DNA from: an uncultured Candidatus Saccharibacteria bacterium
GTDB lineage: Bacteria; Patescibacteriota; Minisyncoccia; Phycocordibacterales; UBA9973
DNA length: 31,138 nucleotides
NCBI GenBank assembly: GCA_964586755.1
Contig: CAZPHJ010000003.1
Coordinates: forward strand, 1-31,138
Reading direction: 5' to 3'
Shown: in pieces, positions 1-14,707 of the stretch
Numbering within the stretch: the first letter of the stretch is position 1
How the letters are laid out: each line of letters opens with the position of its first letter
Program-made: the position numbers and the translations under genes
The notes under the pieces: model-generated
The model's input: only the letters and a program-made list of their open reading frames with translations
Told to the model about the DNA's origin: nothing
Database searches by the model: none

Positions 1-128
1 CCTCGTGAACCCACCGTAAGATTGCGTTCGAAAGTAGCAGCCAATGCTGAACCAGCAGTGACGAGCATACTTGCTCCTGCAACCAATCCCAAACTCGCCT
101 TAACGAATTTTGATTTGAGTGTAGTCAT
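1..128 (-). CDS. 5' part of a secreted peptidoglycan-binding-domain / surface protein (truncated by window edge)
   Basis: Manual translation from ATG at 128: MTTLKSKFVKASLGLVAGASMLVTAGSALA-ATFERNLTVGSRG. This is a Sec signal peptide (K-rich N region, hydrophobic core, A-L-A cleavage) followed by F-x-R-N-L-x-x-G-S-x-G, the usual start of PG_binding_1 domains. Not in the ORF track. Confidence 0.72.
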   Translation of the reverse strand, partial: MTTLKSKFVKASLGLVAGASMLVTAGSALAATFERNLTVGSR

Positions 129-672
129 AGAAAAAATTTCTAATAAATTATGCACTTAATAATAAGCTCGACGATGAACACGAATGTTCATGATGCTCAT
201 TTTGTGTGCACATACTATATATAGTGTGCGTTTTATAACCGTCCACTATTTTGTTTCCTGCTTCAAAAGAATTATTGAAACAAGAAACGATTTGCTGCCG
301 TGTCGACATGGCATCTTCCGAGATTTGCGAGAGTATGATGAGAGGCAAAAAATTTGCACTCTAATTCGTGTCCCGCACTCCCCAAGAAGTAATACGTATC
401 GACATTGAAAACACATTCCTAAATTTTTTCTCGCCTATCGCGAAAAAATGTTGAGGTACATACGACCATTTTCATATGCCGTATGCTATGTAATTTTCAA
501 GGTTCGATCCGCGTGTACTCTCCGAGAGATGCGAATGGTACGAGAGGCCTATCCTCCGCCCCGCACTTCGGAAAAATACCTACTGACGCAAGAATCTCGT
601 ACGCAAAATGCGCACGATATAACTTGCTTACACATTATATTACCTATGCCGTATAACGACCAAATAATACCG

Positions 673-681
673 TGTGGATAA
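673..681 (-). promoter_or_regulatory. Single perfect DnaA box (TTATCCACA on minus strand)
   Basis: Plus strand reads TGTGGATAA at 673-681 in a non-coding region. Only one copy was found, so function is uncertain. Confidence 0.3.
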
Positions 682-824
682 CCTTCGATTTTTGACCGAA
701 AGCCATCAACCCGCATCATAACATTTTTTCCTTCAAAAAACAACTCTTTTCTTGTGTTGGATATAATCCGGCATCCATGCATTTTTCATGGATTCTAGAT
801 TTCAATCCAGAACAAAAAACTGGG

Positions 825-1646
825 CTAGGTAGCAACCTTGTACATACTCCAACGCTTCTCACCTTCCTTGATCAAGACCCCTTCCTGTACAAGTCCATGA
901 AGCTCACGCTGGATGGTTTTATCACCAATGTCTTTTAGAATTTCTGATATGTCCTTTATCGAAACTTTTCCTTTATTTCGGACGATACTAAGGACATCAT
1001 TTCTGCGAGCAATCTTACTTCCCAATTCACTTTTCTTTGAAACAGACATCAAAACCTCGCTAGCTTTTGCATCATTTTTATAAAAGACATTTTCTTGTTT
1101 TGTGTGTCCTTTAATAAAGTCATGTCCTTTATCAATCTGTTTGATTGTCTCTTGGTCTTTTTCAACTACAAACATTTCTTGATTCAAGAGTACATTTGAA
1201 AATCCAAATCGTGGAGCAACAAATAATTTCTTTTCTCCTGAATTTTCTCCGACTTGTGACTGTACTTTTTTAAGCTCGGTTTCCAAGATTTTTCCGTTCA
1301 TTTCTGAAACCAATCCGAGTGTTGTCGCCAACAAAAGAAAAGTCATCGTTTGATCAATAAGCGATATGCAATCGCTAGCCAAAACAGTGGGAATTTCGTT
1401 CGGGTTTTTTGGCAACTTTTGTGTAGTAGAAATCAAAGAAACCGCGAGCGTCCTTAATTCGATCTTGAGTGGCTCTGAGTCTGCAAGAAAGTCCGTTACC
1501 ATGTAAATTGCGGTCGCGATTCTTTCTGTCTTTTTGGCGATAAAAGACACAGTGGAAGCCTTCTGATAAAAGCTATTTACAGCTTGTCCTGTATGGATTT
1601 GTCCGTTATGGTCTGTATGTATTTGTTGTGTGTCTTTTAATTCCAT
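825..1646 (-). CDS. DNA-binding protein: N-terminal helical-bundle-like domain, low-complexity linker, C-terminal DeoR-like winged HTH
   Basis: 273 aa ORF. The C-terminus RRNDVLSIVRNKGKVSIKDISEILKDIGDKTIQRELHGLVQEGVLIKEGEKRWSMY is a typical winged-helix pattern. The N-terminus KTERIATAIYMVTDFL..EPLKIELRTLAVSL is helical. Confidence 0.8.
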   Translation of the reverse strand: MELKDTQQIHTDHNGQIHTGQAVNSFYQKASTVSFIAKKTERIATAIYMVTDFLADSEPLKIELRTLAVSLISTTQKLPKNPNEIPTVLASDCISLIDQTMTFLLLATTLGLVSEMNGKILETELKKVQSQVGENSGEKKLFVAPRFGFSNVLLNQEMFVVEKDQETIKQIDKGHDFIKGHTKQENVFYKNDAKASEVLMSVSKKSELGSKIARRNDVLSIVRNKGKVSIKDISEILKDIGDKTIQRELHGLVQEGVLIKEGEKRWSMYKVAT

Positions 1647-1700
1647 GTGAATTTTTTATACCAAAGATGGTGTCCTTATTAGGTAATTGTGTGTCCGTAA
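929..1700. repeat. Cluster of TGTCYTTTA 9-mers within and upstream of the HTH gene
   Basis: Exact matches on + at 929, 950, 1105, 1123 and 1631, and on - at 1081 and 1541. Near matches at 988(-), 1040(-), 1527, 1585, 1600, 1671 and 1692. Confidence 0.85.
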
Positions 1701-1707
1701 TAGCCGT

Positions 1708-1735
1708 ATTATACGCAGAGCACTTGAAAACGCAA
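1708..1735 (-). promoter_or_regulatory. Sigma70 promoter of the HTH gene
   Basis: Minus strand TTGCGT-N16-TATAAT; the -10 lies at 1713-1708. Confidence 0.55.
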
Positions 1736-1810
1736 ACCCTAAAATCCCAAGCATCAAACTCTAAAAAAGACATGGATTCATCTAGAATTTCGAATTTAGA
1801 TTTTGGAGTT
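1727..1810. repeat. Degenerate inverted heptamer arrays
   Basis: Left arm aaaacgc-aaaccct-aaaatcc-caagcat-caaactc (1727-1761). Right arm tagaatt-tcgaatt-tagattt-tggagtt (1783-1810) is the reverse-complement type. Confidence 0.6.
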
Positions 1811-1845: not shown

Positions 1846-4080
1846 ATGGCAAAAAAAACTGAAGAAATTGAAGAGGAAGAAGATATTGAAGTTGAAGAAA
1901 AACCCGTCCGTAGAACGAGCTCCAAAAAGAAAAAAATTGATGAATCAAAGCGACTCAAAGATGAGACAAGACACACCGTAGTTGGAGTCATATTTCTCGC
2001 ACTCGCACTTTTTTTTGTAATGGCAGGATTCGGTTCTGGTGGACCCGTTGGAGCTGGTGTACACAGCGCTGGAAAGTATTTGTTCGGTGTTGGATATGTC
2101 CTCCTTCCGATCTTGTGTGCATTTCTTGGTATCACTTTTGTACGCACAGGACGACCCCACATCGCACTCACTCAAGGTGTAGGTTCGATACTATTTTTGA
2201 TGGGGACACTCGGCCTCATCGACATCGCAAGTAATCCAAATCATGCCGGTGGAGTCATCGGAAAATTTTTTGGATTCATCTTCGAACGACCGTTTGGAAC
2301 ACTTGGTGCGATTCTTTTTCTTGGAGCATTTCTCATCATTTCGCTCGTCGTACTTTTTGATACCCGTCCTACTCTTTCAATAGTCAACGGTCTTATCGAA
2401 AGATGGGAGGCGCGTCGCGATGCACGCAAAGCGCAAGCACTCGCCAACAAGCGCCTTGTGGTCAATGACAATACACAAGCTCCAGAACCACAACCTGTAC
2501 CAAAATCTCAACAAATTGATGATGAGGTAAGTCCATCAGGAAACGAATCATTGATGGATGAATTGGAAATCTTACCAAAGCAAAAAATCCGCAAAGCGTA
2601 TTCATCATATGTTCCACCACCACTCGATCTTCTCAAACGTGACTCCGGCAAGCCGAACGTGGGTGATGTCAAAGCTAACGCAAACATCATCAAACGCTCA
2701 CTTTCAAACTTCGGCATCGAAGTAGAAATGGACGAGGTAACGATTGGTCCGACGGTCACAAGATATGCACTCAAGCCTGCTGAGGGCGTCAAACTTTCTC
2801 GTATTGTCGGACTCCAAAACGACCTCTCTCTTGCACTCGCCGCCCACCCAATCCGTATCGAAGCACCGATTCCAGGCAAGAGCCTGGTAGGTATTGAAAT
2901 CCCGAATAAAGCGAAATCGATTGTAGGCATGGCTACACTTTTGTCTGATGATAAGTTTAAAAATTCAGAGAAGCCGCTCACTGTGGCGCTTGGACGAGGA
3001 ATCAACGGTATGGCGAATTTCGGAAATCTTGCCAAGATGCCTCACGTGCTGGTAGCCGGTGCAACTGGATCTGGAAAGTCCGTCACCATTCACTCTATTG
3101 TTGTATCCCTCCTCTATCGTAACGGACCTGACGAGATGCGCTTCATCATGATCGACCCGAAGCGAGTAGAGCTTACTTTGTATAAGAACATCCCTCATCT
3201 TCTCACTCCCGTCATCACTGATGCCAAAAAAGCCATCCTCGCTCTCAAATGGGCAGCCAAGGAAATGGATCGTCGATACGACATTCTCCAGGCCGAATCT
3301 GTGCGTGACATCGAAAGCTACCACAAGACTGTGGTAGGTGATACAAAAAAAGGCAAACCAGATGAAGTTACAGCTGATCCAATGCCATATATTGTCATCA
3401 TTATCGACGAATTGGCTGATATCATGCAGAGTTATCCGCGAGAACTCGAATCTGCGATTGTGCGCCTTGCTCAGATGTCGCGTGCGGTCGGTATCCACCT
3501 CCTCCTTTCGACACAGCGTCCGTCGGTAAACGTTATCACTGGTCTCATCAAAGCCAACGTGCCAGCTCGTATCGCCCTACAGGTGTCTTCTCAAATCGAT
3601 TCACGTACCATTCTTGATGCTGCAGGCGCCGAAAAACTCCTCGGTGCCGGAGACATGCTCTATGCGGCTGGAGACAAGCCACAACCGGAACGTCTGCAGA
3701 GTGCCTTTATTTCTGAAAGCGAAGTTAAGGAAATTGTAAAGTTTATTATTGAACACAATGAATCAGATGGTGCCGATGAAATTGTGCTTTCCGGCTCTGT
3801 TTCGGCCGACAAAACCATCTTTGACGCCAATCTTGATTCTGATGGCGATAATGACGACGAGCTCTACGAAGATGCTCGCATGACCGTCATTGAGGCTGGT
3901 AAAGCTTCCACTTCTTACCTGCAACGCAAGCTCGGTGTCGGATATGCACGTGCTGCTCGTCTCATCGACATGCTCGAAGAGCGCGGAGTTATCGGACCAG
4001 GAAGTGGTGCAAAACCACGCGAAGTGCTCATCAAACAAGGTGACGGAATTATGGATGTTCCTGCGGAAATGCAAAATTAA
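1846..4080 (+). CDS. ftsK: FtsK/SpoIIIE DNA translocase
   Basis: N-terminal 4-TM domain; Walker A GATGSGKS; IDPKRVEL; IIIDELAD; STQRPSVNVITG; gamma domain LQRKLGVGYARAARLID. ATG 1846 preferred over GTG 1837. Confidence 0.98.
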   Translation: MAKKTEEIEEEEDIEVEEKPVRRTSSKKKKIDESKRLKDETRHTVVGVIFLALALFFVMAGFGSGGPVGAGVHSAGKYLFGVGYVLLPILCAFLGITFVRTGRPHIALTQGVGSILFLMGTLGLIDIASNPNHAGGVIGKFFGFIFERPFGTLGAILFLGAFLIISLVVLFDTRPTLSIVNGLIERWEARRDARKAQALANKRLVVNDNTQAPEPQPVPKSQQIDDEVSPSGNESLMDELEILPKQKIRKAYSSYVPPPLDLLKRDSGKPNVGDVKANANIIKRSLSNFGIEVEMDEVTIGPTVTRYALKPAEGVKLSRIVGLQNDLSLALAAHPIRIEAPIPGKSLVGIEIPNKAKSIVGMATLLSDDKFKNSEKPLTVALGRGINGMANFGNLAKMPHVLVAGATGSGKSVTIHSIVVSLLYRNGPDEMRFIMIDPKRVELTLYKNIPHLLTPVITDAKKAILALKWAAKEMDRRYDILQAESVRDIESYHKTVVGDTKKGKPDEVTADPMPYIVIIIDELADIMQSYPRELESAIVRLAQMSRAVGIHLLLSTQRPSVNVITGLIKANVPARIALQVSSQIDSRTILDAAGAEKLLGAGDMLYAAGDKPQPERLQSAFISESEVKEIVKFIIEHNESDGADEIVLSGSVSADKTIFDANLDSDGDNDDELYEDARMTVIEAGKASTSYLQRKLGVGYARAARLIDMLEERGVIGPGSGAKPREVLIKQGDGIMDVPAEMQN

Positions 4081-4598: not shown

Positions 4599-5672
4599 AT
4601 GGCTGGATTTGCAAAAAAAGCGCCGAAAGAAAAGAAAGAAACTGGGATGGATATCATCGACACCATCAAATCAATCCAAACGAAGTTTGGAGAAGGTGCG
4701 ATTATGAAACTCGGAGACACTCCAAAAGTAGACGTTGATGTCATTCCATCAGGCTCTATGGGTCTTGATATGGCACTCGGCGTTGGAGGAATCCCCCGCG
4801 GACGCATCATCGAAATCTTTGGACCGGAATCATCTGGTAAAACTACGCTCGCCCTGCATATCGTAGCAGAAGCACAAAAAAAGGGCGGTATCTGCGCATT
4901 TATCGACGCCGAACACGCAATGGATCCAGTCTATGCCAAAAATCTTGGGGTGAATACCAACGAACTTCTCATCTCTCAACCGGACACCGGCGAGCAGGGT
5001 CTCGAAATTTGTGAATCACTTGTCCGATCAGGCAAAATTGCCGTCGTTGTAGTCGACTCTGTAGCAGCACTCACACCAAAAGATGAAATTGAGGGCGACA
5101 TGGGAGCGCAACACGTAGGCAAACAAGCTCGACTCATGTCACAAGCACTCCGCAAGCTCACGGCAATCGTTTCAAAATCAAACACCGTTGTTATATTCAT
5201 CAACCAGATCCGCATGCAAATCGGTGTCATGTTCGGCAATCCAGAAACAACTCCAGGTGGAAAGGCGCTCAAATTTTACACATCGATTCGTCTCGACATC
5301 CGTCGCATCGCTCAGATCAAAAAAGGAGAAGAGGTCGTCGGAGGTCGTACGCGTGTAAAAGTGGTCAAAAACAAGGTCGCTGCCCCATTCAAACAGACTG
5401 AGTTCGATATCATCTACGGTGAAGGTATCTCGTACGAAGGAGAACTTATGGCTCTCGGCGAAAAGATTGGCATCGTTGCCAAATCTTCCGGCGGGTCGTA
5501 CACCTATACTCCACAAAACAAAGATGGCAGCAAAGCTGAAGAAATCAAAATGGGTCGCGGGTATGACGCAACCCGTACCTTCCTGAAGCAAAACGCAAAA
5601 CTCGAAAAGGAAATGGAAAAGACTATCCGTTCACGCTTCAGCGAGATCCAAGTCGCAAGTGCAGGAGAGTAG
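4599..5672 (+). CDS. recA: RecA recombinase
   Basis: [52 protein letters not shown]. No intein or intron is visible. Confidence 0.99.
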
Positions 5673-6171: not shown

Positions 6172-6189
6172 ATAAAACAATTTTTTCTT

Positions 6190-6218
6190 ATACTAATTGG
6201 ATTAAATAGATATGTCAA
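6190..6218 (-). promoter_or_regulatory. Sigma70 promoter of the 5734-6171 gene
   Basis: TTGACA-N17-TAGTAT on the minus strand. Confidence 0.65.
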
Positions 6219-6224
6219 TCAGGC

Positions 6225-6253
6225 TTGAAATTATGGGTTTTTTCGGTTAGAAT
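6225..6253 (+). promoter_or_regulatory. Sigma70 promoter of efp
   Basis: TTGAAA-N17-TAGAAT. Confidence 0.65.
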
Positions 6254-6283
6254 CCCCTTGTCTGACCTTATTATCCGTATCTG

Positions 6284-14317: not shown

Positions 14318-14362
14318 AAAAGTTCATAAAGTTTGTAAAGTTCATAAAGTCATTCAAGTCTT
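14318..14362. repeat. 9-mer tandem arm downstream of the four-helix-bundle gene
   Basis: aaaagttca-taaagtttg-taaagttca-taaagtcat-tcaagtctt. Confidence 0.9.
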
Positions 14363-14707
14363 GAGTGTCTTAATAAACCCAGACAGTATTTTTGAAATTT
14401 CGCTTGCATGATCAGCAAGTACCAGATACTGTTGCTTGTTAATATACTCAAGATCTAGGGCAAGCGCCAGCATAGAACGAACTTCGCCCGATGAACCTTT
14501 GGCTATAAAAAGAAAATTTCTAAACTCCTTGTTCGTCTGCCTCTCGTACCCTTCTGCAATATTATTCATTATTGAAACAACTGCCCTCTCGATTTGGTTT
14601 TTGAATGAAAAATCTTTACATCCAACAAACGTTGAATAAATTATAAGCGAAAAAACTTTGGCTTTTTGCCAAGCAACAATATCTTCAAATTTTTGTATGG
14701 TCGTCAT
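14354..14707 (-). CDS. Four-helix-bundle protein (23S rRNA intervening-sequence protein / S23 family, Avd-related fold)
   Basis: FEDIVAWQKA...IY...FKNQIERAVVSIMNNIAEGYER...F..FL.IAKGSSGEVRSML..A.DL.YI...I..ILSGFIK is the family consensus pattern. Confidence 0.95.
   Translation of the reverse strand: MTTIQKFEDIVAWQKAKVFSLIIYSTFVGCKDFSFKNQIERAVVSIMNNIAEGYERQTNKEFRNFLFIAKGSSGEVRSMLALALDLEYINKQQYLVLADHASEISKILSGFIKTLKT

Follow-up and report, generated by a model that had tools for sequence, protein, structure and literature searches.

Why does a gene for a winged helix-turn-helix (wHTH) protein carry copies of one 9-bp DNA motif, TGTCYTTTA, throughout its own reading frame and promoter, and which factor reads them? 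We addressed this question in a stretch of 31,138 nucleotides, which is referred to as a whole as the window. Binding-site repeats inside the own gene are known from lambda O (the ori-lambda iterons) and from the RepA_N-type initiators (pAD1, pSK41). No relevant paper was found in a literature search.

Results

The Motif Forms One Dense Cluster in the Genome

The window contains seven exact copies of TGTCYTTTA, all of them inside positions 929-1639, and these are the seven that the original prediction had listed (+929, +950, +1105, +1123, +1631, -1081 and -1541). Dinucleotide shuffles of the window yielded 0.72 copies on average and three at most. The near matches that had been claimed are present as well: five copies within 929-1772 deviate at one position (967, 1527, 1585, 1600 and 1764), and the sites at 1671 and 1692 have two mismatches each with the GGACA core intact. 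Likewise, the pairs spaced by 21 bp (929/950 and 1671/1692) and the inverted pairs (1081/1105 and 1527/1541) are real. Altogether, the window holds about 12 sites (Table 1). On the gene strand the motif reads aTAAARGACA; it is asymmetric and 9-10 bp long. The sequence chosen to represent the main-family motif, with its GGACA and TAAA parts, is TATAAAGGACAT.

A genome-wide count, which the original prediction had asked for, showed that the motif is not uniformly common: TGTCYTTTA occurs 14 times in the 692-kb assembly, and half of these copies are found within 710 bp at the wHTH locus. A genome scan with a position weight matrix (PWM) gave 12 matches at 927-1762 and elsewhere never more than three per 400 bp, and an unbiased k-mer cluster scan placed the wHTH locus among its top few. 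The array is the sole dense cluster of the motif in the genome. The seven remaining exact sites do not exceed the chance expectation, five of them lie within ORFs, and no regulon was visible among them. Paralogous systems elsewhere in the same genome were not found.

Table 1. Features of the wHTH locus in the window. Sense and antisense refer to the wHTH gene; domain boundaries are given as nucleotide positions, with residues in the last column.
Feature	Position	Strand or orientation	Description
Conserved leader of the downstream gene	156..694	-	Nucleotide conservation; metatranscriptome contigs over 1-694
Promoter directly downstream of the DnaA box	-35 658-663, -10 634-639	-	From sequence
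Perfect DnaA box TTATCCACA	673..681	-	144 bp after the wHTH stop codon; outside the motif array
wHTH gene	825..1646	-	ORF; 273 aa
Helix and winged HTH	828-1034	-	Residues 205-273; AlphaFold2 model
Two sense sites, 21 bp apart	929-937, 950-958	-	Read L-K-D-I and I-K-D-I; wHTH-coding part
Weaker antisense-orientation site CTAAGGACA	988..996	+	PWM 10.3 bits; core 990-996
Disordered linker	1035-1241	-	Residues 136-204; AlphaFold2 model
Linker cluster, antisense-orientation site	1081-1089	antisense	Read N-V-F-Y
Linker cluster, two sense sites	1105-1113, 1123-1131	sense	Read I-K-G-H and D-K-G-H
Four-helix bundle	1242-1586	-	Residues 21-135; AlphaFold2 model
Inverted pair, sense member AAAAAGACA	1527-1535	sense	Read K-K-T-E
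Inverted pair, antisense member	1541-1549	antisense	Read V-S-F-I
Weak sense site TACAGGACA	1585..1593	-	One mismatch; PWM 10.0 bits
Sense site directly after start codon	1631..1639	-	Codons 3-6, L-K-D-T
Degenerate sense site TAATAAGGACA, 5' leader	1671-1681	-	PWM 11.6 bits
Degenerate sense site TTACGGACA, 5' leader	1692-1700	-	From sequence; 21 bp from TAATAAGGACA
Putative wHTH promoter	1708..1736	-	TATAAT 1708-1713, 17-nt spacer, -35-like TTTGCG 1731-1736
Intergenic site AAAAAGACA, pointing to ftsK	1764..1772	+	PWM 14.2 bits
Divergent ftsK	1846..4080	+	4TM, alpha, motor and gamma domains (Pfam)

The Array Is Conserved With the Gene

The wHTH gene is single-copy; of 301 genomes sampled from one class (Paceibacteria), 171 have it. 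Orthologues had been proposed as a check for a clustered DNA motif, and such a motif was indeed found with the gene: the 9-mer is located in or just upstream of it in 79 of 80 other loci, and only two copies lie further out across approximately 6 kb of flanks of these loci. The median number of core sites per locus is nine, and the 7-mer core occurs 6.8 times per kb in the gene regions vs. 0.30 times per kb in the flanks (about 23 times denser). In an unbiased 8-mer enrichment, AAARGACA came top in the 300 bp upstream of the gene (57-147x) and again in the coding sequence (60-255x), and the weight matrix is identical for non-coding and coding copies. The array persists down to approximately 30% protein identity (range roughly 30-90%). 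In lineage G079, which has the helix EKTLQRD, no array was seen in the gene, and the feature is therefore not universal in the wider family.

Sites in the family cluster from -100 to +25, at about +100 and from +475 to +800, the last region corresponding to the parts coding for linker and wHTH. They are mostly arranged head to tail, with favoured spacings of 11, 21 and 31 bp, and form a direct-repeat array of 9-12 sites in the own gene, as is typical for iterons. Sense copies outnumber antisense copies 139:21 upstream and 410:90 in the coding sequence (about 85% sense). The antisense copies are approximately 6-9 times enriched and conserved in position; one such site in the linker is conserved in 22 loci, where it is read in two frames (NV[FL]Y or MSF[TM]). 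The divergent neighbour named in the original prediction is a full-length FtsK according to Pfam, and ftsK occupies this place in 78 of 81 loci.

Selection Acts on the Nucleotide Sequence

The copies had been attributed to selection on the DNA with the argument that they are read in different frames. This conclusion holds, but the argument alone is insufficient, because every one of the seven exact copies in the window coincides with conserved family residues (xKDT, VSF, KGH/KGQ, NVFY, IKDI and LKD). This conservation favours an explanation in which conserved peptides (KD[TI], KGH/KGQ, KKTE), together with codon usage, give rise to the copies as a by-product with no function at the nucleotide level. 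Synonymous reshuffling of the wHTH gene led us to reject this explanation as extremely improbable: over 20,000 trials it gave 0.55 copies on average and four at most, short of the seven observed. Across the family, core sites number 6.14 per coding sequence, with 1.83 expected.

A by-product of the peptides would also not explain the strong synonymous bias, which is confined to motif codons. In the aligned I-K-D column, which contains the core motif in 39 loci, isoleucine is encoded by ATA in 63 of 77 cases vs. a background of 21% (P=3e-30) and aspartate by GAC in 63 of 75 vs. a background of 41%. The KKTE column (core in 44 loci) uses AAG in 60 of 76 and ACA in 45 of 51 cases, and the N-terminal xKD[TI] column (core in 39 loci) GAC in 47 of 49. 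The invariant control residues Q246 and G262 showed no comparable bias. Furthermore, the frame differs between lineages at one position, since in the linker region of the orthologues the motif is read in frame 0 (KGQ/KGH), frame 2 (IKD[KTN]) or frame 1 (KRT). In all, the motif is written in three frames and both orientations and also in non-coding promoter DNA. Codon bias, frame switching between orthologues and non-coding copies together prove that selection acts on the nucleotide sequence and not on the protein alone.

The Protein Combines a Four-Helix Bundle and a Winged Helix

None of 89 homologues of about 273 aa has a functional name; most are unnamed, few are called "hypothetical protein" and a single one bears an automatic ArsR-family label. 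The domain boundaries in Table 1 were taken from an AlphaFold2 model (mean pLDDT 79.6). As modelled, the protein has a four-helix bundle similar to Avd/S23, which a disordered linker joins to a DeoR-like winged helix. Foldseek searches against the PDB showed that the N-terminal domain resembles 2gsc (E=4.8e-3, TM by target 0.69-0.78), 2rld (TM 0.77-0.81) and Avd (4dwl, TM 0.82), all of which can be superposed on it, as expected for the Avd/S23 (PF05635-like) fold. At the level of sequence profiles this domain had no Pfam match at E<=1, and hhalign found no link to the stand-alone 117-aa four-helix-bundle protein of the window (14354-14707; probability 0.8%). The C-terminal domain resembles the BlaI/MecI-type wHTH. 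A DGR ribonucleoprotein and Zalpha are also among the Foldseek matches, and the AFDB matches listed are "bAvd-like", "four helix bundle protein" and "HTH deoR-type domain-containing protein".

HTH_DeoR (PF08220) gave a sub-threshold match to residues 214-260 (20.0 bits, gathering cut-off 21, E=5.8e-4), and a precomputed match to this family is present in some homologues. The architecture is not that of DeoR: the HTH is C-terminal, the four-helix bundle N-terminal, and a DeoR_C match is absent. Sequence searches of NCBIfam and PDB returned weak, generic wHTH matches only. The four-helix bundle is probably an oligomerisation module; that the oligomer might be a pentamer is taken from the fold likeness to the pentameric Avd/S23 proteins alone (Foldseek E ~5e-3).

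Motif and Protein Change Together

Subfamilies that differ in recognition helix or wing have an array of another motif in their own gene. Group A (helix EKTVQRE, wing WRRY) has TATCGGACA, with 19 copies in eight of eight gene regions vs. two in the flanks. The SERTLRYDLQKL subfamily has aATnCGGCAAt, with 166 copies spread over all 29 gene regions vs. 26 in the flanks; these copies use all frames, and most of them lie in the linker. In each of the two subfamilies, the motif of the other is not enriched. The array thus changes with the recognition helix or the wing, which points to self-binding, and on these sequence grounds the motif is most likely bound by the protein that the gene encodes. 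The co-variation covers three subfamilies only. Two divergent groups, B and C, comprise three loci each, too few for a motif to be defined. A phylum-wide search with the protein of locus L102 retrieved two relatives only and was then repeated within the order of genome G293. Repeats at loci L094 and L101 were set aside as generic genome repeats, as they are present in the flanks too. The site sequence predicted for the SERTLRYDL-type protein is AATCCGGCAAT.

That a different DNA-binding protein recognises the motif and controls the gene, for instance a conserved regulator encoded elsewhere or the gamma domain of FtsK, is in our view quite improbable. In support of it, none of the computed results ties the wHTH protein physically to the motif, and the divergent neighbour conserved in the main family is ftsK, whose product has a gamma wHTH domain. 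A separate binder would, however, leave it unexplained that the motif shifts with the recognition helix or wing of the wHTH protein in three subfamilies, and, there being no second cluster in the genome, it would serve one gene alone. The FtsK recognition words of E. coli and B. subtilis are spread over the genome and skewed in orientation, unlike the motif described here; orienting words of the KOPS type were rejected, because the motif lacks a genome-wide distribution.

Sites Overlap the Core Promoter

The predicted TATAAT on the minus strand (1713-1708) is present, and the sites at 1671-1700 follow just downstream of this -10 box. A simple consensus scan missed this promoter because its -35 element is weak. 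Operator positions near the -10 box turned out to be a family feature: in about 30 orthologous loci with a common TTGCAT/TTTGCA-17-TATAAT layout, a site reading TATAATGGACA straddles the -10 box and +1, and the order is TATAATGGACA, TTAAAGACA and then AAAAAGACA-nATG. Some family sites lie upstream of the -35 element. Putative cognate sites overlap the own core promoter and transcription start, as is found in autoregulated repressors, and this overlap with the -10 box suggests cooperative autorepression by the wHTH protein. Metatranscriptome contigs cover 1-694 and are absent from 695-2400 and hence from the wHTH gene, which is weakly consistent with tight repression.

We propose the following model. 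The winged helix would recognise the asymmetric 9-10-bp aTAAARGACA and would find its targets at high density in the promoter, the 5' leader and the coding sequence of its own gene. With spacings of 11, 21 and 31 bp, neighbouring sites would lie on the same side of the DNA helix, where multivalent oligomers could bind cooperatively and bridge the promoter and the intragenic clusters. The bridged complex would shut off transcription of the gene itself, and the flanking promoters (ftsK and the leader with the DnaA box) may be affected too. Cooperative self-shutoff appears to be the most likely outcome because sites cover -10/+1 and the translation start and because the spacings are helically phased. 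The binding protein, its oligomerisation, the repression and any output beyond self-control are what we infer in this model; taken as a whole, an oligomeric wHTH protein that binds the array in its own gene and represses itself is probable, with considerable room for doubt. Several points count against it: the co-variation spans three subfamilies, lineage G079 shows no array, the pentamer idea lacks sequence similarity to Avd/S23, a regulator that densely targets only its own gene has no obvious output, and the roughly 85% of copies on the sense strand are also predicted if the motif acts in RNA.

In the latter case UAAARGACA repeats in leader and ORF, bound by the wHTH protein or by another factor, would serve translational autoregulation or the control of RNA stability. 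Besides the sense bias, one copy directly before the ATG, in the place of a Shine-Dalgarno sequence, and others over the first codons agree with this, and Avd-type bundles as well as some winged helices bind nucleic acids other than B-DNA. An action in mRNA is nevertheless very doubtful: antisense copies are enriched too, including the one conserved in two frames, half of the conserved TATAATGGACA site lies outside any transcript, and some sites are situated upstream of -35. The sense bias has a plausible coding explanation, and the wHTH is of the DeoR/BlaI type, which binds DNA. A Shine-Dalgarno-like or CsrA-like RNA motif is unlikely, since half of the motif copies read AAAAGACA and have no GGA.

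The Locus Is Neither Origin, Centromere nor Terminus

The original prediction had considered a role in replication or segregation, and neither an origin nor a centromere was borne out; the system might have a part in organising the nucleoid or in segregation. In the genome analysed, dnaA with a cluster of DnaA boxes (TGTGAATAA x4) is located on another contig (C2) and parB on a third (C33). In two relatives assembled as single contigs (G018 and G079), 135 kb and about 173 kb separate the gene from dnaA. It sits in mid-replichore, where the cumulative GC skew runs monotonically, and away from the extremes; in G079 the skew minimum falls at dnaA. An origin of replication is rejected on the basis of the dnaA cluster and the GC skew, which does not switch at the gene, and plasmid or phage homologues of the wHTH protein were not found. 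A parS centromere is rejected because a canonical parB is encoded elsewhere and the motif is not palindromic; the wHTH protein contains no ParB domain, and its gene is not ori-proximal. The locus is neither oriC nor parS nor the terminus.

Downstream of the wHTH gene a perfect DnaA box precedes the next promoter. DnaA boxes occur about once per locus, with 62 perfect ones counted across 81 loci in the first 300 bp beyond the stop codon, and abut the -35 element at a fixed spacing. The downstream gene encodes a secreted peptidoglycan-binding protein, starts at 155 and runs off the contig. Its leader of approximately 470 nucleotides is conserved and apparently transcribed, with the DnaA-box promoter in front; leader nucleotides are conserved even where the wHTH proteins of the loci compared share just 47% identity. 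Rfam gave no match on the whole window or on 1-900, the leader included, and tRNA or tmRNA genes were not found in the window.

These surroundings bear on a reading in which the array is an iteron-like assembly site, so that a nucleoprotein complex marks or organises the locus and autoregulation is a by-product. Such a site might serve segregation or anchoring, be a secondary or regulatory replication element, or act as a platform together with the DnaA box and FtsK; we regard the reading as unlikely. Its anatomy is that of lambda O and RepA_N-type replicons, with direct repeats in linker-coding DNA, phased spacings and a multivalent architecture, and it is in line with the conserved perfect DnaA box 0-300 bp downstream, with the conserved synteny with ftsK and the cell-wall gene and with the lack of a visible regulon elsewhere in the genome. 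It is opposed by the position of dnaA, its box cluster and parB elsewhere, by the mid-replichore location in two single-contig genomes and by the lack of plasmid or phage relatives among those found. In addition, a single DnaA box per locus that abuts -35 at a fixed spacing is what a transcriptional site would look like, and sites overlapping the -10 box fit repression.

Discussion

The wHTH gene carries an array that is unique in its genome, conserved, under selection at the nucleotide level and co-varying with the protein subfamily. The comparison with the lambda O iterons made in the original prediction is apt in anatomy: as in lambda O and RepA_N, direct repeats of a putative own site lie in the own ORF, largely in DNA coding for an interdomain linker, the protein is predicted to be multivalent and a DnaA box is nearby. 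Unlike those genes, the wHTH gene is chromosomal, single-copy and class-wide, has no plasmid or phage relatives that could be found and is located away from the GC-skew extremes; its sites also extend over the promoter, the N-terminus and the wHTH-coding part, and the protein is related to O or RepA_N neither in sequence nor in fold. The parS sites in parB/spo0J genes are likewise sites for the own product within a coding sequence and conserved across species, as is putatively the case here. However, parS is a 16-bp palindrome, usually one per gene and ori-proximal, whereas the wHTH gene has 9-12 copies of an asymmetric word of 9-10 bp, and the wHTH protein has no ParB fold, with a canonical parB elsewhere in the genome.

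Putative operators at the promoter and further ones inside transcribed DNA are shared with lac O2, gal OI and the three operators of DeoR. Cooperative binding of an oligomer to several sites is the likely mode here as well, and the HTH is DeoR-like. In contrast to these systems, the wHTH gene has far more sites, which are dual-coded in its own ORF and kept down to about 30% identity, and its protein has no ligand-binding domain and no visible regulon. The Avd/S23 proteins (4dwl, 2gsc, 2rld) share the four-helix-bundle fold (TM by target 0.7-0.8) and are themselves pentamers that bind nucleic acid. They differ in that sequence similarity is lacking and that the bundle of the wHTH protein is joined to a wHTH via a 70-residue linker.

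The gene might also be a self-nucleating chromosomal element, with the disordered linker kept mainly as a DNA scaffold for the protein's own sites and the complex as the functional product. We consider this rather unlikely. If it were true, linker and sites would form a genuine dual code, and the multivalent complex could be a mark of the locus or a switch by which FtsK, a structured RNA under DnaA control and a protein of the cell wall are tied to the cell cycle; in these bacteria most of the known regulators of division are missing.

The overlap of protein and DNA codes at this locus is unusually clean, with a 9-bp word kept in three frames and at synonymous sites. The family could serve as a model for the joint evolution of binding-site arrays and disordered linkers and is a natural data set for the specificity of winged helices. 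It also provides a testable predicted pairing of protein and site from organisms that cannot be cultured alone. CPR bacteria (Patescibacteria) have very small genomes with few recognisable regulators, and the control of their division and cell wall is almost unknown; the synteny of the wHTH gene with ftsK and the gene for a peptidoglycan-binding protein makes it of interest for both.

A motif array at the wHTH locus

The winged-HTH (wHTH) gene is divergent from a long ORF that Pfam assigns to ftsK; the encoded FtsK is full-length, comprising 4TM, alpha, motor and gamma domains. The original prediction of a seven-copy TGTCYTTTA cluster was confirmed: the 31-kb window contains seven exact copies, all at 929-1639 and each where it had originally been placed, compared with a mean of 0.72 and a maximum of 3 in dinucleotide-preserving shuffles of the window. 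The word is rare in the assembly (692 kb in 81 contigs, 41.6% G+C), where just 14 copies are present, 7 of them at the wHTH locus. Since the word had been picked post hoc, two unbiased cluster tests were run. When all 7-9-mers of the genome were scanned for local clusters, the wHTH locus came within the top few, and a weight matrix derived solely from loci of other genomes gave 12 matches at 927-1762 and at most three per 400 bp elsewhere. The k-mer scan also returned short-word clusters on two other contigs, five copies of AAAAAGGCA on C9 (3903-4507) and five of AGTTCATAAA on C35 (2071-2907).

Features of the wHTH locus and parts of the predicted wHTH protein
Feature	Position	Strand	Remarks
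wHTH ORF	825-1646	minus	273 aa; divergent from long ORF starting at 1846
Perfect DnaA box TTATCCACA	673-681	minus	144 bp past wHTH stop codon
Leader	156-694	minus	~470 nt, ahead of peptidoglycan-binding protein gene
Four-helix bundle	residues 21-135		AlphaFold2, confident
Linker	residues 136-204		AlphaFold2, disordered
Helix, then winged HTH	residues 205-271		AlphaFold2

A total of 89 close homologues, each about 273 amino acids long, were identified. None is functionally named: most lack any name, a few read "hypothetical protein" and one has an automatic ArsR-family label. Scanning one genome per prokaryotic species yielded at least 559 loci, nearly all from MAGs labelled Patescibacteria or Parcubacteria-type, with one contig filed under Bacteroides; 80 loci with flanks were retained. 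The clustered motif is present in these orthologues: 79 of the 80 have the 9-mer in or just upstream of the wHTH gene, and just 2 copies lie farther out in the ~6 kb flanks. De novo enrichment against the flanks returned AAARGACA as the top 8-mer both in the upstream 300 bp (57-147-fold) and in the coding sequence (60-255-fold). Gene regions (97.7 kb) contain 665 copies of the 7-mer core and flanks (392.7 kb) contain 117, a 23-fold difference in density, with a median of nine core sites per locus. The family weight matrix reads aTAAARGACA on the gene strand, has zero information beyond these 10 positions and is identical for coding and non-coding copies. Across loci the sites group at three places, from -100 to +25, near +100 and from +475 to +800, with preferred spacings of 11, 21 and 31 bp.

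Selection acts on the nucleotides

Selection on DNA had been proposed because the copies are read in different frames. All seven exact copies coincide with family-conserved residues, therefore this argument alone is not enough, but its conclusion stands: selection on the nucleotides is settled by frame use, codon bias, synonymous reshuffling and promoter copies. All three reading frames are used at conserved columns of the 81-locus alignment: KGQ/KGH is the frame-0 reading of the core, KKTE/EKTI/KRT the frame-1 and xKD[TI] the frame-2 reading. Within the variable linker, one position is read in different frames by different lineages, and the codons at an antisense hot spot give NV[FL]Y or MSF[TM]. 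Relative to usage in the flanking ORFs, codons at motif positions are strongly biased: Ile230 is ATA in 63 of 77 cases (background 0.21), GAC (background 0.41) encodes Asp232 in 63 of 75 cases and the Asp near the N terminus in 47 of 49, Lys39 is AAG in 60 of 76 and Thr40 is ACA in 45 of 51. Q246 and G262, equally invariant and outside the motif, show no synonymous bias. The binomial P values (3e-30 for Ile230) are overstated because the loci are related, yet synonymous sites are saturated at ~30% protein identity. When synonymous codons were redrawn for the window protein in 20,000 trials, a mean of 0.55 and a maximum of 4 copies were obtained versus the 7 observed; family-wide, the expectation is 1.83 core sites per coding sequence and 6.14 are observed, an excess shared by 79 of 81 loci. 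Non-coding promoter DNA is filled with the same aTAAARGACA word. Reshuffling, codon bias, frame switching and these non-coding copies exclude a pure by-product of coding.

About 85% of the motif copies lie on the sense strand, which would suit a motif acting at the RNA level. This bias is, however, explicable by coding: an in-frame TAA is a stop codon, so that frame-1 sites start with A and not T. Moreover, antisense copies are 6-9 times over the per-strand background, and one antisense linker position is retained in 22 loci, in two frames. The promoter has the layout TTGCAT-17-TATAATGGACA in about 30 loci; TAATGGACA matches the motif with one mismatch and has the -10 hexamer as its 5' half, so the whole site is presented by duplex DNA only. 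Some loci have sites upstream of the -35 box or inverted half-sites bracketing the -10 box. With these observations against it, an RNA-level role seems very improbable.

The wHTH protein is the predicted binder

The AlphaFold2 model (mean pLDDT 79.6, 70-sequence alignment) has three parts. By Foldseek, the bundle resembles pentameric S23/Avd proteins (2gsc, 2rld, 4dwl; TM by target 0.7-0.8, E about 5e-3), and the C-terminal domain resembles winged helices of the BlaI/MecI, AspA and Zalpha type. AFDB clusters contained solely uncharacterised CPR proteins of the same architecture, and sequence-level matches were thin (sub-threshold DeoR-HTH, weak BlaI and weak NCBIfam). The window also encodes a stand-alone S23/Avd-like four-helix-bundle protein of 117 aa (14354-14707, minus strand), to which the wHTH bundle has no profile similarity (hhalign probability 0.8%). 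If the protein forms a multivalent oligomer, its wHTH domains on long tethers would suit an array of phased sites.

Divergent family members were collected by whole-genome searches and de novo enrichment was redone per subgroup. Enrichment in group A (8 loci; recognition helix EKTVQRE, WRRY wing) was highest for TATCGGACA, which has 19 copies in 8/8 gene regions versus 2 in the flanks. The SERTLRYDLQKL subfamily (29 loci, another order) has CGGCAAT as top word, with 166 copies in 29/29 gene regions versus 26 in the flanks; the weight matrix is aATnCGGCAAt, and its sites occupy all three frames (85/58/50), mainly in the linker-coding part. AARGACA is not enriched in these 29 loci, nor CGGCAA in the main family. 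The GGACA half is kept where the EKT[IV]QRE helix is kept and altered where the helix is altered. This co-variation is the best computational evidence for the wHTH protein as predicted binder of the motif. The array was not found in the lineage of the single-contig relative G079 (helix EKTLQRD); the feature is therefore widespread, not universal. Upstream of its wHTH homologue (~416,900-417,100), G079 carries long perfect palindromes, GGCGGACTCAATTGAGTCCGC and GTGCAGAACCGAGTTCTG...CAGAACTCGGTTCTGCAC, and the palindrome CTCTTTTATAAAAGAG lies inside the gene.

Binding of the motif by another factor is unlikely, as the motif changes with the recognition helix or wing of the wHTH protein. The window's genome has neither a paralogue of the wHTH gene nor a second motif cluster, so any other binder would necessarily be dedicated to this one gene.

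DnaA box and leader downstream of the wHTH gene

Gene order is conserved: a small membrane protein gene, ftsK on the opposite strand, the wHTH gene, a spacer of 190-1150 bp and the gene for a secreted protein of ~750 aa with a PG_binding_1 domain. The latter is still downstream in most divergent loci examined, namely both other array-bearing subfamilies and two of three group B loci. The array does not reach into the spacer. Within 300 bp past the stop codon, 62 perfect DnaA boxes were found in 81 loci, about one per locus. The box always lies directly upstream of a promoter (box-n6-9-TTTGCA/TTGGTC-17/18-TATAAT, including TTATCCACA-n6-9-TTTGCA-17-TATAAT; window 634-681 and loci L001-L080). DnaA may therefore be a transcription factor for the cell-wall gene downstream.

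The leader is conserved at the nucleotide level between loci with wHTH proteins just 47% identical. Its conserved blocks include GTGCGGGGCGGAGGATAGGCCTCTCG, GATCATTGAAAA and GCCATGTCGACACGGCAG; compensatory changes occur in a stem at the 5' end, and one hairpin is invariant. Rfam gave no match at E<=1. The leader is a candidate novel structured RNA or riboswitch-like element. In three metatranscriptome runs, contigs span window positions 1-694 (word depth 9-23) and leave 695-2400 empty. Transcription thus appears to cover the leader and the gene after it, whereas neither the wHTH gene nor the ftsK 5' end was assembled, which is weakly consistent with tight repression of the wHTH gene. At 256-285 the RNA-run contigs carry 61 other letters in place of 28 nt of the leader, so related strains differ by an insertion or deletion.

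Replication, segregation and autorepression

The original prediction of a replication or segregation locus was not borne out for an origin, terminus or canonical centromere. In the window's genome, parB is on contig C33 and dnaA on C2, beside four TGTGAATAA words (DnaA-box variants) within 80 bp (~6180-6256), shortly past the dnaA motor-domain match (5104-5595); this cluster is likely oriC. G079 (837 kb) has dnaA (551.5 kb) at its cumulative GC-skew minimum (550 kb); its wHTH homologue, at 416 kb, falls on the limb that joins this minimum to the maximum at 100 kb. In the single-contig relative G018 (652 kb), the wHTH gene (553 kb) is off any skew extreme. Homologues were absent from phage and plasmid collections. 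These roles are therefore unsupported. G018 also has three perfect DnaA boxes within 30 bp (412,782-412,811; L153 and neighbouring loci), ~20-30 kb beyond its skew maximum (380-395 kb) and distant from dnaA (74.5 kb); its skew curve is flat at 65-185 kb.

We consider it reasonably probable that the wHTH protein binds aTAAARGACA, with dense targets in its own promoter, leader and ORF, and that cooperative multivalent binding would repress the wHTH gene and possibly influence both flanking promoters. In the main rival, self-binding is kept and the product is the complex, which would mark the locus in an iteron-like manner with DnaA and FtsK; this reading is doubtful, though less so than another binder or an RNA role.

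Lambda O, RepA_N plasmids and parS in parB provide known cases of a protein's sites lying within the gene that encodes it, and autorepression with auxiliary operators is classical. The wHTH gene shares own-gene sites, here putative, with these systems. No published description of such an own-gene array family was found in the literature searched. In contrast to the known systems, the wHTH family is chromosomal and class-wide; also new are the density of the sites and their dual coding in three frames throughout the ORF of the protein itself, and a motif that co-varies with the recognition helix or wing.
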